Below, in pieces: positions 10,001 to 57,391 of a DNA stretch of 64,000 nt. Made by a program: the position numbers and the translations under genes. Within the stretch, counting starts at the first letter, position 1. The number at the start of each line of letters is the position of its first letter. The DNA comes from Clostridia bacterium (GTDB lineage: Bacteria; Bacillota; Clostridia; Christensenellales; UBA1242), in NCBI GenBank assembly GCA_017936585.1, contig JAGBFI010000038.1, forward strand, positions 46,503-110,502, given 5' to 3'. The notes beneath the pieces were generated by a model that was not told the origin of the DNA, ran no database searches, and saw nothing but the letters and a program-made list of their open reading frames with translations.

Positions 10001-13000
10001 CAGTTTCGGTCAGAGATTTATAGTTGTTTCCAAAAATTTGTTCCAACGTGTAAGAATTTCCAGAAGCCTCGAATGTGTATACAAGTTCGTCATCCTTATA
10101 CATATTAAGAAGATATCCAGTTGCATCCGTCACCGCATCCCAAGAAAGTCTCACTTCATTTGTGTCGGAAGTTCTTGAAACTCGCACTGCTGTGATGCTT
10201 GCAATTCTTGAAAGCTTGACGTCAAGCGTTGTGCTTGCCGATGAAATTGCACCTTCTTCGCTTGCAAAGATTATCACTGAATAAGTGCCGTTTGCCCAAT
10301 CATCTGGAAATCTGAAAGTAAAGTCGTTTTCTTTTGAAAGGATGAACATTTCATCGTTGTCGTTGCAAATCACTGTGTAGATTGTGTTGTCAGAATTGAG
10401 AGAATTGTCAACAACAAATCCGCCAGACTGCATTGTCACATTGTCAACCTTTTTAAGAACAGAAAGTTGACTGCTTTGAACATATTGTGGACAAACCAAA
10501 TAATATGTGTTTGCTTCCACGTTTGAATAACTGTTCACGAAAGCTGAAAGTTTGATTGTTCCACCAGCTGCCAAGTTTTGATCCACAAAAGATGTCAAAT
10601 CAAAAGTCAAAATTCCGGCTGTTGCATCTCCCGCATTTGGAGCAAGAACATATTTTGTTGCTGCTTCGCCGCCAGCAGGCGTGAAATCTACTTTCAAAAC
10701 AACTCCCCCCAAAACTTGAGCTACATTTTCTTCATCAAACTTCATTTCAACTGCGTGAGTGACAAAGCCATCCGCATTCGTCACAAACTCAACTGATGTC
10801 AGGTTGTTTGCTCTGACAATTTCAACACTGCCCGCTGTTGATGGAATTGCTGAGGCATTGTCTCCTTCGTTGACAACTCTGATTGAAAGCTTCAAAGTTT
10901 CGCCGGCACCAACAAAATTGTCATACATATCACTTGTGATGATGAAACTGTAAGAATCATCCTCTTGTGTCACTGAAAGACCTTCAATCCAAAGGTCATT
11001 TTTGTAAACCTTAAACACTCCCGCACCATAGTTTCCTGTGAAAGTCACTTTGATGTCAGGAAGTTTTGCTTCCACAAGATAGTCCTCTGACGACTCATCA
11101 GTTTCATAAACAAATTCAACATCGGCGATTGCTGGAGTTTCAAGTTTTTTGATTGTTTGCCCCTCGTTGTAAGGGGAATAGTTGAATCCCGCTTCGTTTT
11201 CCGCATGATAATAAACCGTTCCGTTTGCCACCACGCTGTAAGAAGGCTTGATGTGTGCATAAAGTTTGATTGAAATGTCGCCCGCTGCAAGATTTGAAAG
11301 ATTTTCAAGAAGGACCGCATCGGTTTGAATGTTCACTGAATAATATGTCTCGCCATCCTTCACCTCACTTGCAGGGTTTGTGGCAACATATGTATACACA
11401 CTCCCCGCCTTATCCTCAAACACAATCACATATTCAAGAACTGACAAAGTGGAAGAAAATTCATTCCAAGAAATGGTGTTTCCGTCAAAGTCAACAACAC
11501 AATTTTCTGGCTTGACTGTTTCCATATCCGCAACAGTCCAAGTTGAAACATTGCTGTTGAGGAAATATTTGATTGCTGTGAGGTTTTCGTCAGTGCCTTT
11601 GATTTCCTCCGTCCTTCCAATCAGTTGAAGAGTATACGTTCCATCCTCTGAAATTTCCACACTTCCCGTTGTGTTTTGAACTGGCTCTGCATTGCCAAAA
11701 GTCACTGCAACATAATCATATTTGCTTTCAGCCGTTGTGAATGTGAGCGAGTTGTTTGTGAGAGTCACCTTGTCAATGGCGCAAAGCTTGTAGATTTCCA
11801 CACTATTTGACAAATTGGATTCCAAATAGTTTGCATTTGTTACACTGATTTGGAATGTGAAAGTTTTGTTTTCGTCAAAATTGATTTCTGACAGGTCATA
11901 TGCAAGAGCAGAAGTTTGAACGGCCGTGTCAAATGCGTTTGAGGTGATTGTGTAGTTTGTCGCCGCCGTCACTGAAGCATCCACGCTGACTGCATCCCAA
12001 GTCAACATGTTTGTTTCAGCATCATAACGAAGGGGTGTTGTCTTCATTTTTTCAATTTCAAGACTTGTTGCTGAAACATCCTTTTGTGTGGTTGCATAAA
12101 GAGAAGAAATTTGCATTACTCCGTCTTTAAATCTGTTTTGATATGCATAAGCCGAGAACAACAATTTTGTTGATTGGCTATAGTATTGAGAAATTATTGG
12201 ATTTGCTTTCACAAGTGCAATGATTACATCCAAATTAACCGTCACTTCGCCGCTTGATGTTGAAACAAAATTTGATTGTTCGCCAAGAGGAAGGCTGAGC
12301 CCTTGATAAGTTACTGTCACCTGATTTGCAAGTCGAATGCTGAGGTTTTGCGTTTGCCCATTTGGAAGAACACAAGCAACATCCAAAACAAAATATTCCG
12401 CATCTCCAACTTGATTGTCTGTGAATTTAATTTTACCGTTTTCATATCTAAGGTCGCTTGGCTGCGTCAGACGATTGAAAGTGAAAGTTGAATCTCTGCT
12501 GTCAAGATAAACCATTCCGTTTGAAATTTCATAAGTTTTTGTGGCTGAGTCAAACACACTACCATTCTGCTCAAAATCAAGTATGAAGACGTTTTGTTGC
12601 GGAATGTCATAAACAGCCGGTTGCCCATTCACTCCAACTTTTTGACTGATGCCGTCACGAATAACAACTCTTGTCACTCCGGTCTTTGCGTTGACAGTCA
12701 ATGTTTTAGCATCCTCAGCCAGTAACAAATCATCCGATGAAACAGCCGCAATTCTTTGAACACCAAGGCTGTAAGTTTCGGTTGGAAGCCACAAGATTTC
12801 ATCGCTTGAGCGCCCAACGATTTTGATGTTTGCCACTGTTGAAAAATCGTCTGTCAACAGATAGATACTTTCATCTTCGGCGTATTTTTCAAAGTTGTTG
12901 TTTGTGCTGATTTCAATGTCATAACTGTCAATTTCGTCAACATTCCCAATCTTCAAGAAATATCCGGAAGCATTTGTAAATTCGCTCTTGAACGCCTCGT

Positions 13001-15074: not shown

Positions 15075-15447
15075 ACAAACCCCTTTAAAACAGAATTTGG
15101 TCATCGCATAGTGTTCAATTATCTCAAGAGTTTTTCACTGAAAAAAAACTCTCCCAATATCTCACATTTATTTTAACACTTAAAGGGGGAATTTATCAAA
15201 TAAAAAACAAAGAAAAAATATTTTTAATATATATTTTATATATAAAATCCAGCGAACAAAAATAAAAAAATCGATTTTTGGGTGCTGAAAAATAAAAAAA
15301 TATTTCTTTGTACCTAATTTATGGGTGTATAGAAAATTTTAAAAATCAGAAAAAGAAAATAAAAAACACTAAAAAATGCAAATTTTTAATAAAAAAAATA
15401 AGTTTTTTATTTAATTTTAAATCATTTTTTGAATTTATTAAATATTT

Positions 15448-21540: not shown

Positions 21541-21563
21541 AAAAAAAGCCCTTCACAAGGCTT
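21541..21563 (-). terminator. Rho-independent terminator about 210 nt downstream of the annotated stop of the 154-aa gene
   Basis: The minus-strand read is AGCCTT-GTGA-AGGGCT followed by TTTTTTT. The loop contains the TGA that closes the 73-codon in-frame extension described in the findings. Confidence 0.65.
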
Positions 21564-21774
21564 TCACTTCTGAAACCTCCACACCTTCTTCAGGCTGAGA
21601 GTCTGTCAACTGCTGACTTTCATCCGCTTTTTGCACATCATCTGGATTTTCTGTTGAATTTTCATCAAAAGCTTCGAATGGGGTTACTTCCCCTTCTCCA
21701 GTTCCCACATTTACACCCAAGCCAACTTCAGATTTCTCGTTTCCCGTCTGGCCTTCGCTTGACTCGTAACCCTT

Positions 21775-22239
21775 TTAAGCATCCTTGCCAACAGCTGGAA
21801 TTGACATGGCAAATTCATAGAATTCCGTCATATCCTTGTTCATCAAATCAACATAAATGCATCTACCCTGAAAAACACCTTTCATACCGCGATACAAATC
21901 GAAGCTTTGCAAACCTGGCTCAATTTTGAATACGAGTTCATCAAATGGCAACCCATTGATTTCAACAGGCGCACCAAACTTCAAAGAAACATAAGTGCCG
22001 TTTTGAACTTCCTCTCTATACATTTCATCAGTGATAACCCCAAACGCCGGTAAAGTGTGGCTTCCGTCAAACAAAAGAGGAATTTGTTCCTGCAGCTTTT
22101 CTTGCTGATATTCAGTGATTTCCACCACATTGCCATCAACCAGAATCTCCGCATTTTCAACATACGGCAACACATCAACAACTTCAAAAAAAGACAACAA
22201 CATCATCGGCACTCCCAGAAAAAAGAAAAGAAATTTCAT
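21775..22239 (-). CDS. Hypothetical secreted or membrane-anchored protein (154 aa to the first stop)
   Basis: It has an AGAGGTGA RBS and a hydrophobic N-terminus, MKFLFFFLGVPMMLLSFF. I recognise no family. The TAA stop is followed in frame by 73 sense codons. Confidence 0.6.
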   Translation of the reverse strand: MKFLFFFLGVPMMLLSFFEVVDVLPYVENAEILVDGNVVEITEYQQEKLQEQIPLLFDGSHTLPAFGVITDEMYREEVQNGTYVSLKFGAPVEINGLPFDELVFKIEPGLQSFDLYRGMKGVFQGRCIYVDLMNKDMTEFYEFAMSIPAVGKDA

Positions 22240-43558: not shown

Positions 43559-45007
43559 TTAAAGAATTGGTGAAAACAATCTAAAAACTGCCTGCAAAAA
43601 CTTTGTCAACCATCTCTTCTTTTTGAAATAAACGATGTCTGCTTGCTTGCAGTTTTTCAAATCTTCACTGTAATATTTGCGATACTCCGCATTCAACTCT
43701 TGTGAATACATGATGACAGTGTCCTCAAAGTTGAGTCCAAATGAGCGCTGATCCAAATTGCAGGTGCCGATTGAAAGTTTGTTGTCATCTACCACAATCA
43801 CTTTGCTGTGCAAAAAACCATCATAAAGGTATACATCTGCACCAAGTTCGACAAACTCTTTGAGATATGAGAGCGACACCCAAAAGATGGAATGATAGTC
43901 CGGCTTTGAAGGAATCATGATTTTCACTTTCACGCCACTTGCAAGTGCAATTCGAAGTGCGGACACAAACGATTCATCCGGCACAAAATACGGCGTTTGA
44001 ATGAGAATGCTCTCTTTCGCGTTTGCAATAAGTTTGATGAAAACCTCTTTGATTTTCTGCACTGGACTGTCAGGCCCAGACACCACAACTTGCATGTAAG
44101 CGTCTCCGCTTTTCACAACAGCAGGGAACAGCCCGTCTTCAATGTATTTTTGAGATGAGAAATTTTCTTTTTTGAGATATCTCCAATCGTTCAAAAACAC
44201 CGTTTGAAGTCCATAAACTCCGCTTCCAACAATGCGCAAATGTGTGTCTCTCCAAGGGGAAACCCTTTTCTTTTTGCCCATGTGGTCGTCACGAATGTTG
44301 ATCCCCCCCGTGTATGCCACTTTTCCGTCAATGACAACAATCTTTTTGTGATTTCGATAGTTCAATTTGAGATTTATCAAACGAATATGTGCAAAAGGCG
44401 GGAAAAACTCCGCAACCTCTCCCCCAGCTTTCTTCAGTTTTCTGAAAAAGCGTCTTGGGGCTCTCAGACAGCCAACAGAGTCGTAAATAAATCTGACTTT
44501 CACTCCTTCTTTGGCTTTTCTGATGAGCACGTCCATCACTCTTTTTCCGACTTCGTCATCAATAAAAATGTAATATTCCATGTTGATGCTTTCTTTTGCG
44601 GCTTCAAGGTCAGCAATAAGCGCCTCCACCTTGTCAGGGCCGTTTAAGAAAATTTGAACATCATTTGCGGGATACAAAATGCTTCCATAGTTGTAGCAAC
44701 ACTTGATTATCCCCTCATCATCTTTGAGTTTTTCTTTGATTTCGTCATTTGAAACAACAAATTTATTGATTGCTTCGTCATAGTCCACTTGATAAATCTT
44801 GTGATTTGCAATAAGCTTTCTTACGCGGATTGATAACCCACTGCCGAAGGCCATATACAAGATATAGCCTAAGATGGGCAAAAATGTGAGCACTGATGTC
44901 CAGCTGATGACACTTGAAAGTTTCTTTCTTTCAAGAAACACCATTGAAAGGAACAGCAGAAAGTTTAAAGATATGTATGCGATAAAAACCCAAAACCAAG
45001 CATTCAT
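43559..45007 (-). CDS. cls: Cardiolipin synthase (phospholipase D superfamily)
   Basis: It has two N-terminal TM helices and two HKD motifs (NHKKIVVIDGKVAYTGGINI and LHSKVIVVDDNKLSIGTCNLDQRS). The length is 482 aa. Its start overlaps the stop of the giant upstream gene (ATGA). Confidence 0.9.
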   Translation of the reverse strand: MNAWFWVFIAYISLNFLLFLSMVFLERKKLSSVISWTSVLTFLPILGYILYMAFGSGLSIRVRKLIANHKIYQVDYDEAINKFVVSNDEIKEKLKDDEGIIKCCYNYGSILYPANDVQIFLNGPDKVEALIADLEAAKESINMEYYIFIDDEVGKRVMDVLIRKAKEGVKVRFIYDSVGCLRAPRRFFRKLKKAGGEVAEFFPPFAHIRLINLKLNYRNHKKIVVIDGKVAYTGGINIRDDHMGKKKRVSPWRDTHLRIVGSGVYGLQTVFLNDWRYLKKENFSSQKYIEDGLFPAVVKSGDAYMQVVVSGPDSPVQKIKEVFIKLIANAKESILIQTPYFVPDESFVSALRIALASGVKVKIMIPSKPDYHSIFWVSLSYLKEFVELGADVYLYDGFLHSKVIVVDDNKLSIGTCNLDQRSFGLNFEDTVIMYSQELNAEYRKYYSEDLKNCKQADIVYFKKKRWLTKFLQAVFRLFSPIL

Positions 45008-48000
45008 TCGCTCACCTCATCGCCAGCAATGGCGATTGTGAGATTGATAAGATAATACTTTTCACCCACAAGAACGTAGTATGTTCCTGTGTGATCTTCC
45101 ATTTGAAGAGAAGCTGTGTATTTTCTCTCAAGCTCATTTCTGCTTTCGTTGATTTGGAAATATGCCACAGAATTGTCTGCTGAGCCTCCCACCAAAGTTT
45201 TCACCTCTGCATCCAAATTTGAAAGTTCAAATGATGTTGTTGCATCTCTCTCAGTGAAAAGAGTCTTTGCCTCTTCATAGAGATATAACTTTATTGCCAC
45301 TCTTCTGAACGCAATTACTCCACCTTCCTTCAATCTGTATGAAATGAGAAGATTCTTGGTGAAATAGTTTGTTGTGCCCTCTGGCGCTGTCACTGTTGAG
45401 GATGTATCCCACATTGTCAAAACGCCGGAGGTTGAACGCTCTTCCACCATGATGAAAGCATTGCTGTTTGTTGAATCAATTTCTGTCACAAATGGAATTG
45501 TGCCATCAGTCCCAAGAAGAGCATTGATCGTTTCAGTGATGCCCCCTGCATTGATTGTAAGATCTCCACCAGTTGTGGTTGTTTTTTGAATGTATATTGA
45601 TGTTGAATCAGTGCCATCTGGAATAACCTTGAAGTCAACAACAAACTTTGTGACTGCAGTTGTTCCGTCTGCCTTTGTTTCAACCATATAATATTCGTTG
45701 TCAGCAATGATTGTTCCAACTCCGATATTGAGGAATTGTTCCAAAACGACAGGCGATTTTGCTGTTTCTCCTGTGAATTTGAAGAACTTATATGTCGAGC
45801 CTTCAGTTTTGTTGTCAATCAGATTTTGCATGTCAAACTGAGCTTCACGCCCAATTCCAACCGCCTTTTCAATTATGTCGTTATAGACATAGAACTCAAC
45901 GTCATAAACTTTTGCCTCGCCATCGGTTGTGCGTGCGAGATATGTTTTTTCGCTGTAGCCCACAGCTAAAGTCACGTTGTCCACTCCTTCGTTTGATTCA
46001 ATTGGCATGATGCTTCCATCGGCTGAAAGCTCAAACCAAGTTGCGTCAGTTGCAAATTTTGATAAATCATAAGTTGTTGTTCCACTTGTGCTTTCTTTGA
46101 TTGTCACAAATTTGCTTTCTTGTGTGTTTGTTGTGTACACAATCACCTCAGCTGTGAATGCTGCTGTTGTGTATGCACCACTCTTTCTTCCCGTTGCCAC
46201 AACAGAAAGTGTGTAACTTCCCGCTGTTGTGAATGTGTGTGAGTTGAGATTGTTGAAATAAACTGCTGCGTCATCAATCTTCACAAGGTGATAGTTGATG
46301 TTTGTCATTCCGGCAACCACACTCAAATCGTCAAACATTTCATGGAAGTTTGCTGTTTCACCAACTGTGAACGCATAGGTCTTGTCTGAATCGTCATATG
46401 ATAAGATGCTTGAAGTTGCAACATCTGATGTGTATTTCATTGTCCAATCACTTGGAATTGTGATTATATTACCCTCAATCACATAGCTTTCTCCTGCTGT
46501 GCCAGTTTCAGTTGAGTTTTCTCTGTTTGCCAAAGCAAGACGAATTGTTGAAGATGACACAAGGCTGAGAGATTTATCGTCTCCTCCATAATTTCCGTCA
46601 TAGCCTGAAACCTTGACATAGACATTCACTGTGATTGTGTGTGTTTGAATGTTGAAGTTGCTTGTTGTTGTGATTAGTCCATTTTCGTCAATGAACGCAG
46701 AACCTGCACCACCAGACGAAGAGGTGTTGATTTCAAACACAAACTTATATGCTTCTCCAGCAGACGCTGCCAAAGTTTGTTTTACATCTGAAACATAATT
46801 TCCAAGTTCAACCTTTTCTCCCCATACTGCAAGAGGAATCACATAATAAGAGTCTGTGCCATTTGTCATTGTGTAATAATCTTCAACAAGAATGTCTCCA
46901 TTCACTTGTACACCTGTTGCTGTTGCACTCTTAAAGATTGGATAAACCTCAAAGTCTTGTTTAACTTGATAAACTTTGTTTCCATTTCCATCCATCACAG
47001 CATCTATATTATAATAATCCAAGAAATACAACGTTTCTTTCTTATATCTTGAAGAGTTAAGTTCGGCAACATTTTCAACGCGAAGTTGCAGTCCGCCGCT
47101 ATATCCCGAAATGCTGTTTCCTGTTGAGTCAATTTTTACATCCCCACCATTGTAAGCGATAATTGAATCAACCTTTGTTTCCTCGTCACCATTTTTGATT
47201 GTGTCTGAAACAACCTTGATGAAGAATTGGCTTCCTGACGAAAGGTTTTTGGTCAAGATTCCATCCGACATACTGTTTGTGATGCTTACATATTCTGTGA
47301 TGTTGTATATCTTCTCGTTTGTGAGAGTGATGAGTTTAAGTTGAGTGCTGCCAATATACCAGTTTCCATCAGTTTCATTCTTTGCTGCACTTGCAAGGTC
47401 TGCGTTGTGAACAATAAATGAAACTGTTTCGTTTGGTCTGAGAGTCACTTCCAATGTGTCATTGAGCAAAGACCCACTTGCATAAGCCGCGTTCGTCACA
47501 GGGCTTGTGTCGTCCGCGATTTTTGTTGAAGCAAAGTAGTCTGTTGTTCTTTCCTTCTTGATTGTCACTGTTTGAGTGAGAACGCTGATGTGATTAAAGT
47601 TGTCAGTAATTGTGATTTTCATTTGAACATTTGCAAGTTCTCTGCCAGTGCCAAACAAAATTCCGTTGATGTAAGGAACCGTAAATGTATGGTTGTCTGA
47701 ATTGTAATTCTCGCCATTGTAAAGCTTGTAATCCCCGTCTTCTGCCACAACATATGAATATGTTGAAGATGTGATGAGTGAAGCTGTTTTAGCACTGCCT
47801 CTTCCACTTGTTGATCTGTAAGTTCCTTCAACATTTGATCCACCAATCCATGTGTCTTGATAATAGAAGTCAACGTATTTAACTTTGATGTTGTTCAAGT
47901 TTGAAATCATGCCATATTCTTTTGCTGAATTTGTGTCAATTGCCAAATAGTCATTGTTGAACGCATAGGCATCAATTCCACGCAATTCGACATAATTTGA

Positions 48001-51000
48001 AACATTGCTCATCGCTTCTGAAAGAGCCCCGTATTCGCCAGCAACATATGTCTGTGTGAGAGTTTCCTTTGCTTCGAATAAATCTCCACTTCCAGTGCCA
48101 TATTTCACCGTGTAAGTTGCAAGTGAAGCTGGAGTGTCTGAGTCATCCGTCTTGTTCTTGCTCACACTGATTTCAAGTCTGATTTGTGCACCAGCAAGAG
48201 TGTCTCCAACGATTGGAGTTATGATTGCATAACCTTCTGATTTGTCAGCATGCTGCAATTTCCAACCTGTTCCACTTCCATTTATGTTAATATTTCCACC
48301 TGTCCATATTTCATCTCTGAAAACAACATCGCCAGCCATCACTTGTTTGATTTCATCATTTCCATCCAATGTTACGGCTTGTGTGCCCCCAGTCAATGTT
48401 GCTGTGATTCTAACATTTCCAATTTTTGCGTTTGTTTTTGATGAACTTGCTTCGTCAACATCGTTGTTTGCAACCAAACTGATGCTTAAAACATCGTTCT
48501 CTTTGTCGTAGGTGAAGATGTCATACATCACGCCATTCGTTGACTTTGTTTGGTTGACTATTTGGAATCTTGTTCCAACTGCCAAACTTTCACCTTCTGT
48601 CAAAGTGAAACTTCTCATTGTGTTGATTTGTGGATTAAGCTCACCGGTCACTGTGATATAGAATCTTGCCTTGTAGCCATAATCATTTTCAAAGTCAATG
48701 TAGAACTCTTCTTCACCAAGGTCAAGCTGGTCAAATGTGATAGACAATTTGTCAGCTGACTCAACTTTTGTTCCTGTGTAATCAGATGCTGTGGTCAGTT
48801 TCACAATATTTTTATATGTGAATGTGCTTGCCACATTTGTGCTTTCATTGCCATACATATGTGCAACAATTGCACTCTTGCTTCCTGTGTTGCTGTTGTT
48901 CCAAAGATTGAATGTGTATGGGCCAGTTCCTTCGCAAACAATCTTATATGGAGCATTTTTGTTGCTCATGATTGACTGACCTTCCACAACAAGGTCATCA
49001 TCTCCACCGTTTGTTCCTGCAGTTGAAGAAATGCCCTCGCTGAATGTCATTGCTGATTTTGGCATAACTTTAAACAGCAAGTTGTGTGATTTTTCAACTG
49101 TAAAACCAGAAGAAATTTCAACTATATAAGTGAGTCTCATCATCACAAAGTTGCCATCATTGCTTGCCCCTTGTGCACGGATGAGATAGTCAACGTCTGT
49201 TTCGTCAGTTGAGTGTGTTGCTCCGGAAATTGTGAGATAGTTCTTCGTCACATCCCCAGCTGTGCCAACACTGCCGTCACTCAATGTTTGTCCAGCTCTT
49301 GGGGTCAAACCAGAAGCATATTTAATTTGTTTTTCGTCAACCGTTTGAAGTGTTGAGGAAAGTTCGTTGTGAATGTCATAGGCCGTTTTTGTCAATGAGT
49401 CTGTTTCTGAATTTTCAATCTTCATGTCATCAAAACCATAAATCTTCAATGACAATTTTGCACCTGAGTCTTCAACCATATCTTTTGTGTAGTACGCGTT
49501 GTTCTTGACACTCTTGATTCCAAATCCGCGATAATAGTCAAGCAAACTCACGAATTGTTGGTCTGCGTCAACTTCAACATAAGTGCGGGTTGTCACGCTG
49601 TCGGCATTGCCGGAAACTGTGAAGTCAACTGTGAGATATACATTATACACACTGCCCGTCTCGATGATTGGATCTGAGCCATAGCCAATTCCAATCTTGT
49701 AGGTCACATCCTTTTGGAAATCTTCCTCTGAAAGTGTGATTTCTGAAGCGTTGACATAGTTTGCACTTGTTGTGCTTGCTGCATCCGTGTTGTCAACTTT
49801 CAAAAGTTTGAGATTTGCGTTTGCACCAAGAAGAACTCTCTTGCCGTCAGCATATTTTGCCTCAATTCTTGCTGTCAGACGTGGTGCTGTTTCAAAGATG
49901 TCCGCTTCAGCCTTCACACCCTCAGAATCCTTCTCTTTTGCAAGAGTTTCTGTTGTGTATGCGGCTTGATATGTGAAGCCTTGCAATGATTTTCCAAGAT
50001 CAATGTTTGTGAGAGTGTTGCTTCCTGTTGCAGAAATTTCAATGATTTCATATGTTCCTGCATTTTCAAAACGCAACCAATATGTTGAGCCCGCTGCAAC
50101 ACTTGACTTGAATGCATATTGTAAAATTCTGTTTGAAGCAAAGATTTTTGCTTCTGATTGTTGTTTCAAATCTTCCGCATAGATTGTTTCTTTTGCGTTT
50201 TCATATGTTGGAGCGTTTTGTTCGATTGAAATCACGCTTCCTGCCACAACAACCACTTTGTAGGTTGTTGAAACTTGATTTACGATGATTTCAAAGTCAA
50301 CGCTTCCTTCACTTTCTGCATTGACAAGTTCAAACACAAGTGAAACATCAAAAGCTTCACTTCCAGCTGCAACATGTCTGAGGATGTTTTTGTCAGAAGA
50401 TGTTTCTGTGATGATCTTGCCATTTGCTGTGAGATTTACATTTGAGATGTTTGAAACATTGATTGTCCAAGCTTGAGTGATGTCGCCGGCTGCCGCAACA
50501 GTTGTTGCCTCCACTCTTGCTTTGCTTGAGAAGTCCGCATTGCTTCCAAAGAATTCTGAAATTGTTGCAGATTTATACGTCCCGTCTGAAAGCGTTGTTG
50601 CAATATATTCAACCGCACTCTCTGAAATACCGTCTGGCATTGGATAGTTTTCTTCCAAATTCACGTTCTTTTCAATTGTGTAAGCATAAACCAAAGACGA
50701 TTCAAACACCACAACTGTTTCTTTTCCACTATTGAACAAACTCTTAATTGTATATGTTCTGTCCGCTGTTGTTGTGCTTGCAACATTGTCAGGTGTGAAC
50801 TTCACTTCTGAAGCATAGATTTCAACTCCATCGCCGTCTGTTCCAGTCACGAACATAAATTCTGTACTGCCAACATTCGTAAACTTGGCAATTTGAGTTG
50901 CCACATTCTCAACAGAGAGTGTCACTTCCTTTCCACCATATTGAGATGCCTTTTCTCTGTAGATGTTTGACTCTGTGTTGTTGAAACTTGCTTTCACTGC

Positions 51001-51924
51001 GATTGCAAAGTTGAATGAATAATATGTTGTTGCGGTTGTTTCCTCACCAGTTGCTGCATCAGTCTCTGTGTGCTCCGCTGTGATTGTTGCTCTGAAGTTG
51101 AAGGTTGTGTCTGCCGTCAAGTGAGCGAACTCAATTGTGCTGCCGTCCCAAGTTGTACCTTCCGTGATTTTGAAGAGCGTGTTGATTGAAATATCGTTAA
51201 GTTTCACATCATCTGTGTCTGTGTTTTCAACCTGAACTCCAATGATTGTTTTGTTTCCATCATTGTTTAAGATATCCAATGTTTTGAAGAGTTTTGTTTC
51301 ATCTGTCCCGCCAAAATGATAAGTCTCTCCACCAACAAATCCTTCTCCAATTTCAATTTTGTAATAACTTGTGATTGTCAAAACAAGTTTGAACACTCTC
51401 TTTTGAGATGTGTAGAAGCCTATTTCAACGGTCTTGTCTGAATCCACGCTTTCTGCTGGTTGAATTGTGATTTGCGATGCACTGTCGCCTGTCACTGTCA
51501 CCGCGCTTGCTTCATCCACAACATAATATTCATAATCTGTCACAGGTGCGGTTGTGTTGTTTGTCTTTATGCTGATTGTTGATGTGAACAAATATTTTCC
51601 GCTGTCTGCTGGGATTGTTGCTGCAAAAGTTGTGTCATCTATTTTTGTGAGTGTCACACCATCACCAATTATGCTACCCTCATCATCAACTTTTGCGTTT
51701 GTCAATGTTGGGATATAGTTGCTTGACTGGTTGAAATTGAAGGTGTAAGTCAAATCGCCACCAATCAATTCTCCACCTGCAACAAAGTGCGTTTTTGTGA
51801 TTTCAATTGTTACTTTTTGAGTTGAATCCGTAAGTGAAATTGCAAGAATTCCGTTTGTAAGGCTTTCTGCATCATATGTGATGTAAGAGCCATAGTTTGT
51901 CATTTGTGTGCCGTTTACAAACAC
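45004..51924 (-). CDS. C-terminal 2,306-codon portion of a giant surface protein, in frame with and directly abutting the upstream 1,713-aa ORF (one TAA between them)
   Basis: There is no signal peptide, and no RBS precedes either the nominal GTG or the first ATG. The composition is Thr/Ser/Asn/Val-rich and beta-rich like the upstream part. The frame is continuous with 51925-57066. Confidence 0.7.
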   Translation of the reverse strand: MFVNGTQMTNYGSYITYDAESLTNGILAISLTDSTQKVTIEITKTHFVAGGELIGGDLTYTFNFNQSSNYIPTLTNAKVDDEGSIIGDGVTLTKIDDTTFAATIPADSGKYLFTSTISIKTNNTTAPVTDYEYYVVDEASAVTVTGDSASQITIQPAESVDSDKTVEIGFYTSQKRVFKLVLTITSYYKIEIGEGFVGGETYHFGGTDETKLFKTLDILNNDGNKTIIGVQVENTDTDDVKLNDISINTLFKITEGTTWDGSTIEFAHLTADTTFNFRATITAEHTETDAATGEETTATTYYSFNFAIAVKASFNNTESNIYREKASQYGGKEVTLSVENVATQIAKFTNVGSTEFMFVTGTDGDGVEIYASEVKFTPDNVASTTTADRTYTIKSLFNSGKETVVVFESSLVYAYTIEKNVNLEENYPMPDGISESAVEYIATTLSDGTYKSATISEFFGSNADFSSKARVEATTVAAAGDITQAWTINVSNISNVNLTANGKIITETSSDKNILRHVAAGSEAFDVSLVFELVNAESEGSVDFEIIVNQVSTTYKVVVVAGSVISIEQNAPTYENAKETIYAEDLKQQSEAKIFASNRILQYAFKSSVAAGSTYWLRFENAGTYEIIEISATGSNTLTNIDLGKSLQGFTYQAAYTTETLAKEKDSEGVKAEADIFETAPRLTARIEAKYADGKRVLLGANANLKLLKVDNTDAASTTSANYVNASEITLSEEDFQKDVTYKIGIGYGSDPIIETGSVYNVYLTVDFTVSGNADSVTTRTYVEVDADQQFVSLLDYYRGFGIKSVKNNAYYTKDMVEDSGAKLSLKIYGFDDMKIENSETDSLTKTAYDIHNELSSTLQTVDEKQIKYASGLTPRAGQTLSDGSVGTAGDVTKNYLTISGATHSTDETDVDYLIRAQGASNDGNFVMMRLTYIVEISSGFTVEKSHNLLFKVMPKSAMTFSEGISSTAGTNGGDDDLVVEGQSIMSNKNAPYKIVCEGTGPYTFNLWNNSNTGSKSAIVAHMYGNESTNVASTFTYKNIVKLTTASDYTGTKVESADKLSITFDQLDLGEEEFYIDFENDYGYKARFYITVTGELNPQINTMRSFTLTEGESLAVGTRFQIVNQTKSTNGVMYDIFTYDKENDVLSISLVANNDVDEASSSKTNAKIGNVRITATLTGGTQAVTLDGNDEIKQVMAGDVVFRDEIWTGGNININGSGTGWKLQHADKSEGYAIITPIVGDTLAGAQIRLEISVSKNKTDDSDTPASLATYTVKYGTGSGDLFEAKETLTQTYVAGEYGALSEAMSNVSNYVELRGIDAYAFNNDYLAIDTNSAKEYGMISNLNNIKVKYVDFYYQDTWIGGSNVEGTYRSTSGRGSAKTASLITSSTYSYVVAEDGDYKLYNGENYNSDNHTFTVPYINGILFGTGRELANVQMKITITDNFNHISVLTQTVTIKKERTTDYFASTKIADDTSPVTNAAYASGSLLNDTLEVTLRPNETVSFIVHNADLASAAKNETDGNWYIGSTQLKLITLTNEKIYNITEYVSITNSMSDGILTKNLSSGSQFFIKVVSDTIKNGDEETKVDSIIAYNGGDVKIDSTGNSISGYSGGLQLRVENVAELNSSRYKKETLYFLDYYNIDAVMDGNGNKVYQVKQDFEVYPIFKSATATGVQVNGDILVEDYYTMTNGTDSYYVIPLAVWGEKVELGNYVSDVKQTLAASAGEAYKFVFEINTSSSGGAGSAFIDENGLITTTSNFNIQTHTITVNVYVKVSGYDGNYGGDDKSLSLVSSSTIRLALANRENSTETGTAGESYVIEGNIITIPSDWTMKYTSDVATSSILSYDDSDKTYAFTVGETANFHEMFDDLSVVAGMTNINYHLVKIDDAAVYFNNLNSHTFTTAGSYTLSVVATGRKSGAYTTAAFTAEVIVYTTNTQESKFVTIKESTSGTTTYDLSKFATDATWFELSADGSIMPIESNEGVDNVTLAVGYSEKTYLARTTDGEAKVYDVEFYVYNDIIEKAVGIGREAQFDMQNLIDNKTEGSTYKFFKFTGETAKSPVVLEQFLNIGVGTIIADNEYYMVETKADGTTAVTKFVVDFKVIPDGTDSTSIYIQKTTTTGGDLTINAGGITETINALLGTDGTIPFVTEIDSTNSNAFIMVEERSTSGVLTMWDTSSTVTAPEGTTNYFTKNLLISYRLKEGGVIAFRRVAIKLYLYEEAKTLFTERDATTSFELSNLDAEVKTLVGGSADNSVAYFQINESRNELERKYTASLQMEDHTGTYYVLVGEKYYLINLTIAIAGDEVSE

Positions 51925-54900
51925 TTATGAAATTTCATAAGTTGCAGAAATGTCCTCTGCTGTCACACCAGTATTGAATGTTGGAGCAACAAAACGAGTT
52001 CCAGTTTTGTTTGCACTGTTTTGTGCTGTAAATTCCTCTTCCAAGTTGATCACATATTGATATTCAACTGCTGCGTCATAATAGAGCGATGAACTGTCAA
52101 TATATTCTGCCACGCCTTCGTCAGCGCTTGCATATGGATATTCCACATTCCCCTTTTCAAAACTTGGAACAATCCTGATTCTGTAATAGCCTTCATAGGT
52201 TGCTTTTGTGCTTACAATTCTAATCTTCAAAACGATATGTTGAGCCGTCACAGAATTTTCAAGATGGTTGATGTAAAGTTGCCCAATCTTGTCAGAAGCA
52301 TCAACATAAACCTTCTTTGCATAGTCTCCGCCTGAAACGATGTCCCAACTGATGTTTGGAGTGTCACTGCTTTCATAATAGAAACCATAAACTTGTTTGC
52401 TGTCGAAATCTGATGAGATATCGCCTACTGCATGAACAACTTTATATTGTTGTCCTGCGAGGAGTTGTTGATATACATCAAACGCTTCCAATCTTTCCAA
52501 TGAACCAATCAATGTGTCAAAAGTGCAGTCTCCAAACACGTTGAATTCCAACCCACTTGCTGTGTCTGGAAGTTCACCGTTGTTGTAACACACAAACTTG
52601 TCTCCAAGTGCGCTAACAATCACATTGATGTCAACAACAACTGTAAGCGACTTGCTTGTTTTGTCTTGCAAAACAGCCGAAATTTTCAAATAGTTGCCAG
52701 TTGCGCTTACAAAACTTGAAGTCAAAGTCTTTGCTGTGATTGCGTTCCCAGTCTTGTCCATAAATCCAACCGCTTCTTCAATTGTAAAGCCTGTTCTTGG
52801 GCTGTATTTTTCACCAGAAACCATCAACATATATTGTTCTGCTGATGTGCCATAACTTACTGTTTCAACTGAAGAACCATCATTGTTTGTGATGATTGCA
52901 TCAATTGTTGTGCCATAGCCAGCTAAAATTGTAAATGCAAGTCCAGTTTGAACATCACTCTTTTCAATTGACTTTTGACCATCCTGTGCCACCTTCATCT
53001 TTATGACGTTGAATGCTTCATTGTCTTTTTCAACTGCAAATGATTGTTCAAATGTTTCGCCGAGTTTCAAATAAAGTTCTTCAGCCGTTCCGAAGCAGAA
53101 ATAATAATCCGCTGTGGCTGTGCCTGCCGCATTTGTGCCAGTCACGCCCAAATATCTTGTACTTGATGTGTTTGCAAATGTCAAGCCTGTCATTGAAATT
53201 TCTGTAAGTCCATCAAAACTACCGCTTGCAATGTAGTCCGTTGCCTTATAGAACTTATAGAATGACTTAATGTAAGCGTTGTCTGTTGCAATGCCTGACA
53301 AATCCAAATATGGCTTCCCTGTAAGGCCAGAAACCTCTTCCTTCATGATGATGTTTGGATTTACATAGAGCGTGTATTGTGCTTGCAGTGCATATGAAGA
53401 GTTCACTCCATAATAAACCGTCAAATTGACTGTTTGGAACTTGTAGACATCGGCAATTTTCAAAATGATTTTGCTTTCGCCGGTCTTTGCATCCACCCTT
53501 TCTTCCAAAGTGCAGATGTCACTTCCGCCATTATAGAACACTCCCGTTGCACTTGATGTCAAATCTAACCCTTTGAGTGCTGCAGCCCAAGAATATGCGT
53601 TGTTTGTTTTTGGAGAGAAGTTTGTGAACTCATCCAAATCATATTCCATTCCTCCAAACACTCCAGGTGTGAGATCGTTGTTGCTGTTGACAAGAAATGT
53701 GCTGTTTGCTGAATAATATTTCTCAAAGTTTGGAGTTGCTGTCACATCTTTCAAGCATTCAAATTCATATAAAATGCTGAAGAGTGCTCCGTTTTCGTCA
53801 GTCACGCTAAATTTGATTGTTGTGTTTTCCTCAAATGGCTTCAAAATCACCATGTTTGTCAGTTCTTCTGAAAGCCATTGGTCAATCGTCTTGGTTTCAT
53901 ATTTGTCACCCACACTGTTGAACGCAATCATCTTCATCAAGTCTTCTTTTGCGCTTGGGCTTAAGTTGCCAACATAGTCGCTGTCAAGTTTGATAATCAA
54001 TTTTTCTTGCTCTGTTGCATCTTGTTTATAAACCGCCAAGTGATCTTTCAAAGTGATTGTGTTGCCAGCAGTCACAAATTTTGAGACTTTCACCGTTCCA
54101 GTGTTCATCTTGCCGTTGACGATGTTTTCAATAAGTGGGTCTGTTGAGCCAACAAAATTTGATGGGTCTCGCAAAACTTTCTCAACGCCTTCGCTCACAA
54201 TGTCAAATTCAAATCTTTCCGTTGCAAGGAATGTTTGTGTTGCGACATTGTTGTCGAATGTGTAGATAAGACTGTCGTCCACTTTGTCTACAACATAAAC
54301 AGAAAGATATGTTGTCACTGACTTTCCTTTTGTTGATGGAATTGTCTGCAAACTTTCAAGCTTTGTATCAAATTCAAGCACTGATGTTGAGGCCTCGCCA
54401 CCTACAGCTGTTTCTTCCACAAAGCGAACAGTGTAAAGGTCTGCAAAACCATCAATTTCTTGCCCGAATTGATCAACAAGTTTGAATGAGAGCAGTTTGT
54501 TGAGTTCACCAATAACAGTTTCCGCTTTACCTTCAAAAGTCTTCGACCCCCAAACAACTTTCATACCCTCTGATGTGATGCTGACAGAAATCTTGTCTGC
54601 AAGGCCGTCTTTGTCAAGGTCGAGTTCAGCAAGAGATTCTTTATACGCCCCAACAATTTCAACAGGTTGTTGATAATAGATGTTGAAGTGGTCAAGTCTG
54701 TTTTCTTCTTCCGCTTTTACCATATCGTCAACATATACAATTTGTTGAGGGAATTTCTCTTTGCCGTCATCATAGATAAGTTTAAGTTTGATGTGTGTGC
54801 CGAGGTCAAGTTTATATCTGTTTTCTTTATACAAATTCGAAAACTCTTGCTCAGAAATTGTGAGGTCACTTTCAAAGGTGATAACGTTTCCTTCTGCCTT

Positions 54901-57066
54901 AACCTTTTTAAGCCCGTCCATTGTCACAAAGTTATCAATCTTTGTTCCCGTGATGTCATAACATTCCACATAAAGTTTGTCGTCACGATATGCTTGCTCG
55001 AGTTTTTCTTGATCGCCTTCAAAGTTGTCACTCTTGAGATTCAACTGCATCTTGATCATTGTTTTTTGTGCATAACTGTCGTTTCTGTTGATTGCTGGGA
55101 TGTAATATTCTCCATTTGCATCAGCCTCCACGCCGTCTGCAAAGAAGAATCCTGTTTGCATGTTTTTGATTGACAAAGCACTTTCAACTGTCACCATTTT
55201 TGGTGTGCTTACATTGACAATTTGATAAGCACCGTTTGAAGTATAATATGGAGTCGTTTTGTCAGCATGAGTTCTGATTGTTGCAGCAATCACTTTTGCA
55301 GATTTTGCAAAGCTTCTTGTTGCAATCAATGTGTCGCCATTGAGTTCATAAAGCATATATCCATTATCTGTTGGAGTGTCCAAAATTCCGATTGTGTTGC
55401 CACGATAGTCAGTCTTATACAATTTTCCGCCCTTGTTTGGGAAAACAGTGTTGATTGTTTGTGCATCAACATTTTCATCCGCATCAAACAAGAGGAAATA
55501 TTTGACTGTTTTATATACATTATTTTCATTGATTTTGTTCAAGTATTCCGATAGATGTTCTTCTGCAAAATTTGGCTCGCCGTTGTCTTTGTATGTGATG
55601 TCAAGTTTGATTGTTGCTGTGCTCCAAGATGGGTCTTCTTCATAGTCATGCTCAATCACAGACACAGAAACCTTTCTCTCCCCCTTTTCTTCGTCATCAC
55701 TGAACTCAAAAAGGTTCACAAGTTTGCCCTGTGCGTCTTCATAGAAGAAGTTGATTCGAAGCTCCAATGTGCCAGCCGCTTGTGTTGCCTCAAATTGCCA
55801 ATAATAATCTTTTGCCTCAGCCACCTTGTTGTTTGGAAGCAAATAATATGAAACAGCATCGGTTAAGGAGTAATCCTTTTTCGCGTCATAATCCTCTTCT
55901 GAAAGGACTGCCGCCCCAGATGATTTGTCAACCTTCACAACTCTGCCACCAGTCACAACCAAGCCTTTTGCTTCTGGCATCAAAATTCCAAAATTGCCAA
56001 GCATGCCAGTCAGTTGAACACCGTTGATGTCGCGAACATCCAATTCCAAAGTCGCGTCACCTGTGCTTGAAACTGTGGTGAGTCTGTAATCTTTGTCAAC
56101 ATAGATTGTTTTGAGTGTTGTGTTCTCCACCCCAACCTTAACTTTGCTTGCGTCAAGGTCAACGTCCTTAACCTGTACATTCAGCTCATATGGCTCAACG
56201 CACGCAAGTGGATTTGTTGAAAAATATCCAATCAAAGCATCATTGAGTTCTTCAGGATCGTCCGCGAGATCTTTAAAACGCTCCAAAATCTGCCAGCGAT
56301 AATATGAATTTGAGAAAGTGTATGCTTTTATTGTGTCAGTTTCAATTCCACTGCTTTTGTTTGCTGTAAACTTTCCTGTTTCCCAGTTGTAGGAAATGAA
56401 AGTTCTTGAATAATCAAAGAAGACTTCTTTGTTTTTCTCTGAGTTTGCAAATATGTATTGCCCCTTTTCAGGTGTGAAAGCCACATCAACCGTAAACTCG
56501 CTGCCAACAACCACGCTTTGAGCCTTTCCAGTTTGACCATTGATGGATGCTTCAATTTGTTCAACCGGAACATCCACATTGATTGTGATTTCTACCGGTC
56601 TTTTCATAACATTTTCTGAGGTCGCCTTGATGACCGTTGTTCCGCCAACCGCGACATCTCTCCCAAGCGTGCTGTTATAATCTTTCTTGACAACAACATC
56701 AAAAGGTTTTCCAATCACCCATTCTTTTGGAATTTCAATGATTCCATTTGTGATTTTGCCGTCATATTCATCCGTCTTGTCCGTAAGAGAAAGAGTAATT
56801 TTCTTTTCCGTCACGTCCTCAGTTGTGGTGTCAACAACAATCTGGAAGTTTTCCGCAACATAAAGCTGCCCATTTTCTGCCGTGTACGCCATATTGTCAT
56901 TTTCTGTATCCAGCGAAAGAGAAATATCCTCTGGATAAACAACCTTGTCATCAAACATTCCTGAAAGTAAAAGCCCGAGTGCGGTCGCACCAGCCACCAC
57001 AATCATCCCTGCAAAAACCAACCCTATGGACGCCCAAAGACTTAAAACTTTTTTACCCTTTCTCAT
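51925..57066 (-). CDS. N-terminal 1,713-aa portion of a giant surface protein (signal-anchor N-terminus), ending at an in-frame TAA
   Basis: The ATG at 57064-57066 has a GGAG RBS. The N-terminus MRKGKKVLSLWASIGLVFAGMIVVAGATALGLLLSG is a signal anchor. It is followed by a long beta-rich extracellular-type sequence. Confidence 0.8.
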   Translation of the reverse strand: MRKGKKVLSLWASIGLVFAGMIVVAGATALGLLLSGMFDDKVVYPEDISLSLDTENDNMAYTAENGQLYVAENFQIVVDTTTEDVTEKKITLSLTDKTDEYDGKITNGIIEIPKEWVIGKPFDVVVKKDYNSTLGRDVAVGGTTVIKATSENVMKRPVEITINVDVPVEQIEASINGQTGKAQSVVVGSEFTVDVAFTPEKGQYIFANSEKNKEVFFDYSRTFISYNWETGKFTANKSSGIETDTIKAYTFSNSYYRWQILERFKDLADDPEELNDALIGYFSTNPLACVEPYELNVQVKDVDLDASKVKVGVENTTLKTIYVDKDYRLTTVSSTGDATLELDVRDINGVQLTGMLGNFGILMPEAKGLVVTGGRVVKVDKSSGAAVLSEEDYDAKKDYSLTDAVSYYLLPNNKVAEAKDYYWQFEATQAAGTLELRINFFYEDAQGKLVNLFEFSDDEEKGERKVSVSVIEHDYEEDPSWSTATIKLDITYKDNGEPNFAEEHLSEYLNKINENNVYKTVKYFLLFDADENVDAQTINTVFPNKGGKLYKTDYRGNTIGILDTPTDNGYMLYELNGDTLIATRSFAKSAKVIAATIRTHADKTTPYYTSNGAYQIVNVSTPKMVTVESALSIKNMQTGFFFADGVEADANGEYYIPAINRNDSYAQKTMIKMQLNLKSDNFEGDQEKLEQAYRDDKLYVECYDITGTKIDNFVTMDGLKKVKAEGNVITFESDLTISEQEFSNLYKENRYKLDLGTHIKLKLIYDDGKEKFPQQIVYVDDMVKAEEENRLDHFNIYYQQPVEIVGAYKESLAELDLDKDGLADKISVSITSEGMKVVWGSKTFEGKAETVIGELNKLLSFKLVDQFGQEIDGFADLYTVRFVEETAVGGEASTSVLEFDTKLESLQTIPSTKGKSVTTYLSVYVVDKVDDSLIYTFDNNVATQTFLATERFEFDIVSEGVEKVLRDPSNFVGSTDPLIENIVNGKMNTGTVKVSKFVTAGNTITLKDHLAVYKQDATEQEKLIIKLDSDYVGNLSPSAKEDLMKMIAFNSVGDKYETKTIDQWLSEELTNMVILKPFEENTTIKFSVTDENGALFSILYEFECLKDVTATPNFEKYYSANSTFLVNSNNDLTPGVFGGMEYDLDEFTNFSPKTNNAYSWAAALKGLDLTSSATGVFYNGGSDICTLEERVDAKTGESKIILKIADVYKFQTVNLTVYYGVNSSYALQAQYTLYVNPNIIMKEEVSGLTGKPYLDLSGIATDNAYIKSFYKFYKATDYIASGSFDGLTEISMTGLTFANTSSTRYLGVTGTNAAGTATADYYFCFGTAEELYLKLGETFEQSFAVEKDNEAFNVIKMKVAQDGQKSIEKSDVQTGLAFTILAGYGTTIDAIITNNDGSSVETVSYGTSAEQYMLMVSGEKYSPRTGFTIEEAVGFMDKTGNAITAKTLTSSFVSATGNYLKISAVLQDKTSKSLTVVVDINVIVSALGDKFVCYNNGELPDTASGLEFNVFGDCTFDTLIGSLERLEAFDVYQQLLAGQQYKVVHAVGDISSDFDSKQVYGFYYESSDTPNISWDIVSGGDYAKKVYVDASDKIGQLYINHLENSVTAQHIVLKIRIVSTKATYEGYYRIRIVPSFEKGNVEYPYASADEGVAEYIDSSSLYYDAAVEYQYVINLEEEFTAQNSANKTGTRFVAPTFNTGVTAEDISATYEIS

Positions 57067-57391
57067 AAAAACTCCACATTTGTTTGCAAACAAGTTTTCC
57101 TACTTTTGAGATATTGTTTGCTTTTTCGACAAATAAATACTTTTTAAGTTGTTTCCGTCACATCTTTTTTTGAAGGCGAAAACCGCACGCACAAAAATTA
57201 AAGCAAAAATTATACTTGATAATTTAAATGTAATTTATCACAATTTTATTTTAGCATTTTTTGTCAATATTTCGCAACTAAAAATTAAACAAATATTCAT
57301 AAAATAAATAAATTTATTTTCTTTAAATTTTTAACTATTTTTTGTCGCATTTTTCGAAATAAATTTAAAGCATCAAAAAGGTGATTTTGGG

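Follow-up and report, generated by a model that had tools for sequence, protein, structure and literature searches.

Does a single stop codon that is followed, in the same frame, by 2,306 open codons separate two genes, regulate one, or interrupt one, and is it real at all? This question is raised by a surface-protein locus in the window, the whole 64,000-nt stretch of Clostridia DNA analyzed here, which comes from an uncultured bacterium of the ruminant gut. We compared this locus with near-identical assemblies and with homologues from related species, and examined its coding signals and the predicted structure of its product.

Organization of the interrupted gene

The split gene lies on the minus strand, where the TAA occupies window positions 51927-51925 (TTA on the plus strand) within the junction ...ACT TAT GAA ATT TCA TAA GTG TTT GTA AAC GGC ACA CAA ATG.... 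The ORF listing places a 1,722-aa ORF, counted from a TTG, at 51925..57093 (-) and a 2,306-aa ORF, starting from GTG, at 45004..51924 (-), which abuts the upstream ORF in the identical frame. This arrangement bears out the original prediction of two same-frame ORFs joined by a single in-frame TAA. The predicted frame length of 4,029 codons stands if counted from the upstream TTG; however, the true start is likely the ATG at 57066, judging from the GGAG at 57075-57072, and from there the gene comprises 1,713 + 1 + 2,306 = 4,020 codons. The features of the locus are as follows.

51928..57066, minus strand: portion of the giant gene before the stop, codons 1-1713, with the likely ATG at 57066 and GGAG 5 nt before it
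51925..51927, minus strand: in-frame TAA, codon 1714, with the variable base at 51927 (minus-strand T, plus-strand A)
45007..51924, minus strand: downstream part of the giant gene, codons 1715-4020, followed by TGA at 45006-45004
43559..45007, minus strand: cardiolipin-synthase-like gene of the PLD type, with an ATG that overlaps the TGA of the giant gene (ATGA)

The chance of an open frame of 2,306 codons after a stop is crudely 10^-48. The two parts are also alike in composition, as had been predicted, with a GC content of 0.402 on either side and a GC3 of 0.385 upstream and 0.362 downstream. As further anticipated, the downstream part possesses neither a ribosome-binding site nor an export signal: direct inspection found no GGAGG-like motif before its GTG or first ATG, and no hydrophobic segment in its translation. 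No promoter-like or terminator-like sites were found within 600 nt on either side of the junction. The downstream frame is wholly intact and carries no second lesion, which fits a very recent event and equally fits an artefact. The giant gene is single-copy in the genome, where no contig carries an alternative allele, and no other split of this kind lacking a Shine-Dalgarno sequence was found across the genome.

The cardiolipin-synthase-like gene belongs to the same transcription unit, downstream of the giant gene, and has its own GAGGTG 5 nt before the start, embedded in the 3' end of the giant gene. In the three species checked it comes directly after the giant gene, and this order is kept in the near-identical assemblies and in the metagenome-assembled genome (MAG) of another species (L016). 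A premature stop in the giant gene could exert polarity on it.

The stop codon in near-identical assemblies

Three metagenome assemblies (L001, L002 and L003) represent essentially the same strain as the window. Codon 1714 is AAA (Lys) in all three, compared to TAA in the window. Over 18,063 bases, the window differs from L002 at two positions and from L001 at four, and the sole difference common to all three comparisons is the T versus A (minus strand) at 51927. An uninterrupted 4,020-aa protein is encoded by two of the three assemblies; the apparent frameshift split in L003 (3,487 + 541 aa) was rejected, because it corresponds to a scaffold gap with a run of N. P0001 is the exact 4,020-aa protein with Lys at position 1714, and P0007, from another sample, is a second intact protein of this length. 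Two missense differences aside, the downstream part and residues 1715-4020 of P0001 are 100% identical. Exact look-ups found the 1,713-aa and 2,306-aa products solely in the window's own genome, and an exact-pattern scan of JGI metagenome contigs for both alleles gave no match. Similar look-ups of the PFL-like protein and of the other giant ORF of the window found neither on record, which for the PFL-like protein is explained by a V255A SNP.

The one-base difference and its private, derived state can be read directly from these comparisons, whereas the status of the TAA as the majority allele of the source sample, and not an error, is inferred, as is the fate of the products. The segment 57066-45004 (-) is probably one 4,020-codon gene in which codon 1714 was hit by a private, derived nonsense substitution that is a real allele. 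It is unlikely, but deserves serious consideration, that the T is an artefact of the assembly or of the consensus, or comes from a minority allele; in that case AAA would be the majority allele of the source, the full 4,020-aa protein would be made, and the T would have come from bubble-popping, from a choice during co-assembly or from an error. Such an origin would agree with the intact downstream frame, with a TAA known from one assembly only and with AAA in three independent assemblies of the same strain. The sister samples (SAMN15830102, SAMN15830107, SAMN15830132 and the sample of run SRR12529196) appear to come from the ruminant study of Xie et al. 2021 (ENA projects PRJNA657455 and PRJNA657473), which comprised single-sample assemblies together with co-assemblies of several animals, and the latter can mix alleles (PMC8199421). 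However, 7 SNPs are scattered over 42 kb between the window and one sister assembly, so that the window represents a genuinely distinct, very close genotype and a real private SNP is plausible. In addition, De Bruijn assemblers retain the better-covered path, and Illumina substitution errors seldom reach a majority, both of which argue against an artefact. The TAA is most likely a real allele in the source sample rather than a consensus error.

The giant gene, which makes up 28% of the compared 42 kb, holds four of the seven SNPs. This enrichment is suggestive but not significant, and we do not claim diversifying selection from it. The four near-identical assemblies show seven variable sites in the giant gene; six of these change the protein, and the immediate flanks hold none.

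Homologues and recoding signals

In congeneric genomes, the junction segment aligns within single open frames of 3,141-5,023 aa that are free of stops. An exhaustive HMMER search yielded 13 representatives only; among these, the full-length proteins (3,782-5,670 aa) are matched over residues ~1,400-1,880, and their continuity over the junction was observed directly. The junction column of the homologue alignment is mostly K or S and sits inside a conserved strand-like motif. P0002 was considered as a truncated homologue and rejected, since it starts at a contig end. A search for related loci from a single protein found one relative, an uncultured Clostridia MAG, whereas the alignment contained no stretch of sufficient conservation for such a search. 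The homologues are few and, among the genomes searched, occur in a single genus of gut bacteria with genomes of ~1 Mb.

The comparison of orthologues that the original prediction had proposed therefore gave one uninterrupted ORF; no homologue was found as two genes with their own start signals, and all are single frames across the site. These frames, together with the intact 4,020-aa alleles of the near-identical assemblies, confirm that no independent gene lies downstream of the stop. A pair of genuine adjacent genes has next to no probability, as does phase variation of the classical type at codon 1714. The annotation as two proteins, and nothing more, speaks for these readings, and the orthologous single frames refute the two-gene reading. 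The phase-like variation that had been considered for this codon finds no footing either: the change is a substitution within TCAAAAGT giving TCATAAGT, and as no repeat tract changes in length, there is no slipped-strand mechanism.

A functional two-product arrangement was also weighed, in which low-level readthrough of the TAA, or termination-reinitiation at the GTG (TAAGTG), would still produce a full-length protein or a distinct C-terminal one, so that the short form is accompanied by a rare long form. The GTG abuts the stop, 2,306 codons are open behind it, and NCBI lists a protein for the downstream part. However, the stop is unconserved even at 99.98% genome identity and absent from all homologues, and the downstream part has neither a Shine-Dalgarno sequence nor an export signal, which makes this arrangement highly improbable. 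All three stops are used in the genome, with TAA as the commonest, ending 346 of 655 long ORFs. None of the 34 tRNAs has a stop anticodon; the MAG is 80% complete, so that a suppressor on a missing contig is formally possible. The median open length past a stop is 12 for TAA, 11.5 for TGA and 20 for TAG, with no genome-wide excess of open frames after TAA compared to TGA or TAG. Programmed readthrough, one of the explanations offered originally, was rejected on these grounds: a private, unconserved stop, no suppressor tRNA and no genome-wide signal. Of the explanations offered originally, this leaves a recent nonsense mutation, an assembly artefact and heterogeneity in the population. We accordingly regard the interruption as a recent truncation of an ordinary kind, or else as an artefact of the consensus, and not as a recoding signal.

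The encoded protein and its probable truncation

The product is a predicted giant, acidic, Thr/Ser-rich, all-β surface protein. Its sole strongly hydrophobic segment, at residues ~9-38, forms an N-terminal signal-anchor, with a Kyte-Doolittle maximum of 2.43 at residues 16-34 compared to a next best value of 1.58, and is thereby the single TM-like segment of the whole protein. The N-terminal motif MKKRGVLSLWKV... recurs in homologues. AlphaFold modelling of a 460-aa segment around the junction gave a string of β-sandwich domains with a mean pLDDT of 63.8. Residue 1714 falls in the modelled strand E293-304 (pLDDT 80-89), and with moderate confidence the stop is predicted to cut a β-strand of a β-sandwich domain. 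Separate pieces would accordingly be expected not to fold, a further point against a functional two-product arrangement.

The best Foldseek matches were multi-domain cadherin and Ig ectodomains, SusE-like proteins and one S-layer protein. The cadherin and Ig chains matched with an E-value of about 1e-6, but with a TM-score of only 0.15-0.20 and an identity of 8-13%, for a model of pLDDT 64. Pfam and NCBIfam scans of both halves gave no match. At this model confidence, the resemblance to tandem β-sandwich (Ig-like or cadherin-like) fibrous adhesins is a generic likeness only. The two giant ORFs of the window showed no detectable paralogy. Overall, the gene is a member of a small family of uncharacterised all-β surface proteins of ~4,000 aa with an N-terminal anchor, which may merit study by itself, apart from the stop codon.

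If the TAA is the real allele that we favor, one transversion would have turned the AAA (Lys) of codon 1714 into TAA in the population behind the MAG. Translation would stop after residue 1713 and leave at most an N-terminally anchored stump, with the distal 2,306 residues lost. The downstream 6.9 kb would remain untranslated or, at best, undergo weak re-initiation at the abutting GTG, and a product made in this way would lack an export signal and thus be non-functional. The downstream part, a second protein in the NCBI annotation, would then be the tail of a very young pseudogene. We also considered that the TAA allele is carried alongside the full-length allele within ruminant-gut populations of the strain and is favored by selection, in that losing the distal part while keeping the stump might evade a phage or host factor recognizing the tip. 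On this view, the gene would be a hot spot within the strain. This proposal is improbable.

Strain-specific alleles of this kind have precedents. In Listeria monocytogenes, natural strain-specific premature-stop alleles of inlA truncate a surface adhesin, while related strains are full-length. The present allele is similar in that a strain-specific nonsense change truncates a surface protein that is intact in relatives. They differ in topology, as the anchor of InlA is C-terminal and truncation releases the protein, whereas here the sole anchor is N-terminal and the 1,713-aa stump should remain attached to the cell, losing the distal part only.

The giant surface protein gene ebh of Staphylococcus aureus, split into ebhA and ebhB in Mu50 and N315, offers another comparison. 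It likewise encodes a giant membrane-anchored surface protein, is the largest gene in its genome, and is intact in most strains and annotated in some as two adjacent ORFs via one small mutation (PMC3868527, citing Clarke et al. 2002). Unlike the nonsense substitution at codon 1714, the lesion in ebh is a frameshift; Ebh consists of helical repeats, whereas the present protein is predicted to be all-β, and the two have no sequence relationship.

The locus also shares with bacterial conserved in-frame stops and programmed readthrough the presence of one stop within a long, still-open ORF. What defines those systems, however, is a stop that is conserved among lineages while selection acts on both halves, in contrast to a stop carried by a single assembly. 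In searches for recoding, the locus may serve as a negative control, with a stop followed by 2,306 open codons, explained as a private SNP via near-identical assemblies. For annotation, the deposited 1,713-aa and 2,306-aa proteins represent the two halves of a 4,020-aa gene, for which a flag as a single interrupted gene is appropriate. The second TAA-plus-open-frame case that had been pointed out in the window, at 21775, does exist and consists of a 154-aa ORF, a TAA and then 73 open codons; unlike the TAA at 51927, this stop is present in all same-strain assemblies.

Frame and junction of the giant gene

The giant surface-protein gene (window 57066-45004, minus strand) is interrupted at codon 1714 by an in-frame TAA (window 51927-51925, minus strand), around which the minus strand reads 5'-...ACT TAT GAA ATT TCA TAA GTG TTT GTA AAC GGC ACA CAA ATG...-3'. 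The ORF list holds the two parts as:

51925..57093, minus strand, upstream ORF, in the same frame as the downstream ORF and adjoining it
45004..51924, minus strand, downstream ORF

When 57093-45004 is translated, a single internal stop appears, in agreement with the original prediction of a surface-protein frame split by a single in-frame TAA. The continuous frame stands, but its predicted length of 4,029 codons was counted from an upstream TTG. The likeliest start is ATG 57066, with a GGAG in front at a 5-nt spacer, so that the interrupted frame comprises 1,713 + 1 + 2,306 = 4,020 codons. The 2,306 open codons past the stop cannot be due to chance (~10^-48 by a crude estimate). The GC content is 0.402 on both sides of the TAA and no Shine-Dalgarno-like motif was found at the junction, which bears out the predicted likeness in composition and lack of a ribosome-binding site ahead of the downstream part. 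Within 600 nt on either side of the junction, no promoter-like or terminator-like site was found.

Homology search with the downstream part retrieved, at 100% identity, an intact protein of 4,020 aa (P0001), which reads ...ATYEIS-K-VFVNGTQM... at the junction, with a Lys in place of the TAA. Of the five sequences in the corresponding 90%-identity cluster, two are the pieces from the window, found in NCBI alone; ENA metagenome assemblies contribute two proteins of 4,020 aa, and the fifth sequence is a piece of 541 aa. Compared over 18,063 bp with contigs of near-identical sister assemblies, the window shows two differences from L002 and four from L001. The sole difference common to all three sister comparisons is the T of the window versus A at 51927 (minus strand), as the third contig, L003, also has AAA at codon 1714. 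Given AAA in all three, sequence comparison identifies the TAA as derived and private to the window's assembly, arising from one base change (AAA to TAA, codon 1714). Neither truncated product had an exact match outside the window's own genome, and a pattern scan of JGI metagenomes found neither allele.

Across the four near-identical assemblies, the 12,063-bp giant gene has seven variable sites (N131T, K591K, K1472M, *1714K, A2004E, A2021S and D3176Y; five missense, one nonsense and one synonymous), and its immediate flanks of 6-10 kb have none. Against one sister contig, four of the seven SNPs in 42 kb lie inside the giant gene, which occupies 28% of the length, a difference that is not statistically significant. 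This placement hints at a variable surface gene, with numbers too small for a test. The share of protein-changing sites (6/7) is about what neutrality predicts for differences this young, and selection is not claimed.

In L003, the gene caller split the giant gene into 3,487 + 541 aa. A mutation or frameshift was ruled out, as the split lies at a scaffold gap of ten N (9986-9995 of ENA ERZ28654337 scaffold_217) in place of 15 bases; this assembly artefact, which resembles a frameshift, is the sole cause of the two pieces.

Homologues and predicted fold

In congeneric genomes, the matches to a 600-aa query centered on the junction (query position 301) each lie in one open frame, 3,141-5,023 aa long and without internal stops, and the BLASTP blocks run unbroken through position 301. 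When 1.84 billion representatives were searched exhaustively with HMMER, only 13 proteins came up; in eight of these (3,782-5,670 aa), the query aligns to residues ~1,400-1,880, the same position as in P0001. These homologues have in common the N-terminal signal-anchor motif MKKRGVLSLWKV... K and S predominate at the junction position of the MAFFT alignment, within a conserved alternating motif (TYEIS-K-VFV / TYAIT-K-IVV / NYRLK-S-ASS). The giant gene is also in one frame in the G008-type relative. Since the orthologues form one uninterrupted ORF across the site, the alternative of two genuine genes, which the original prediction had left to this comparison, fails. The homologue P0002 (2,810 aa) was rejected as a shorter version, its start lying 79 bp from a contig end. 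By these searches the family is very small, and within the genomes searched its homologues occurred in this genus alone.

Neither half of the giant protein has a Pfam or NCBIfam match, nor do the family members contain a Pfam domain. Thr, Ser, Val and Asn abound in the acidic, nearly Cys-free protein, whose one strongly hydrophobic segment spans residues 16-34 (Kyte-Doolittle 2.43, against 1.58 for the next best). The AlphaFold2 model of residues 1414-1873, computed from a five-sequence alignment (A1), has a moderate mean pLDDT of 63.8, rising to 80-89 near the junction. Beta structure makes up nearly the whole segment, with residue 1714 in the strand E293-304. The best Foldseek matches in the PDB are tandem beta-sandwich chains, namely protocadherins, contactins, titin Ig domains, a SusE-like protein and an S-layer protein, with E-values of about 1e-6 but TM-scores of only 0.15-0.20. 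The modeled likeness points to a generic fibrous beta-sandwich, with no family assignment. Altogether, we read the giant protein as an N-terminally anchored, adhesin-like giant surface fiber. Because the anchor is N-terminal, the 1,713-aa stump would remain attached to the cell, with its last domain broken and the distal 57% of the fiber missing.

Origin of the stop codon

The window's assembly (1.01 Mb, 42 contigs, 38.8% GC, about 80% complete) has relatives with ~1-Mb genomes in one genus, two of which are named "uncultured Clostridia bacterium" and "Candidatus Caccovivens sp." in NCBI. Nothing suggests TAA reassignment or general suppression. Long ORFs of the assembly end at all three stop codons, most commonly TAA (346/655), and ARAGORN found no tRNA with a stop-codon anticodon among 34 tRNAs and one tmRNA in this ~80% of the genome. 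Open in-frame stretches are not longer after TAA than after TGA or TAG, with medians of 12, 11.5 and 20 codons, respectively. In a scan of all consecutive long same-frame ORFs of the genome, the two halves of the giant gene are the only abutting pair without an intervening ribosome-binding site or a shadow-frame sign.

The TAA is probably a real nonsense allele. The window differs from the SAMN15830102 contig by seven SNPs in 42.3 kb and thus represents a distinct genotype, in which private SNPs are expected; moreover, assemblers keep the majority path. It is rather unlikely that the TAA is a consensus or assembly artefact or a minority allele, for which speak its occurrence in one assembly only, the downstream frame free of a second lesion and, provided that the window's MAG and the sister samples share their source study, the binning in it of co-assemblies from several animals (Xie et al. 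2021; PMC8199421). Mechanistically, translation could restart at the abutting GTG and would then produce a cytoplasmic fragment without a signal. Any functional readthrough or reinitiation arrangement is highly improbable, as the stop is unconserved even at 99.98% identity. Overall, an uncharacterised giant surface-protein gene has undergone an ordinary truncation of very recent date, unless the TAA is a consensus artefact. Premature-stop alleles are known for adhesins such as Listeria inlA, which serves as a second precedent. The closest is S. aureus ebh, which is whole in most strains and divided by one mutation in Mu50 and N315, where it is present as ebhA and ebhB (PMC3868527).

Downstream gene and other frames of the window

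The TGA of the giant gene and the ATG of a cardiolipin-synthase-like gene of the PLD type share a 4-nt ATGA; the latter gene has its own GAGGTG 5 nt upstream. The sister assemblies and a MAG of another species keep this gene order. The premature stop, 6.9 kb upstream, could lower expression of the cardiolipin-synthase-like gene via polarity. Two further frames are:

21553-22239, minus strand, 154-aa ORF, TAA (21777-21775) and 73 open codons; membrane/secreted-type protein
4074-15104, minus strand, second giant ORF of 3,676 aa without a Pfam match

The second TAA followed by an open frame, predicted at 21775, is present with 73 open codons; unlike the giant-gene stop, it is strain-fixed, as four other same-strain contigs encode a 154-aa product identical to that of the window and ended by the same stop. 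These codons encode an acidic, low-complexity peptide. As homologues of the 154-aa protein in four related species continue past the conserved core into acidic low-complexity C-terminal tails of roughly 20-90 residues, the 73 codons may be left over from a tail of this kind, severed by an older nonsense change, and not a frame open by chance.

The 3,676-aa ORF has no detectable similarity to the giant gene. No record of the sister assemblies matches its product exactly; there, the ORF is probably fragmented or changed in one residue or more. An exact look-up of the window's pyruvate-formate-lyase-like protein was also empty, because of a SNP at window 20628 that gives V255 in the window and Ala in two other same-strain assemblies.
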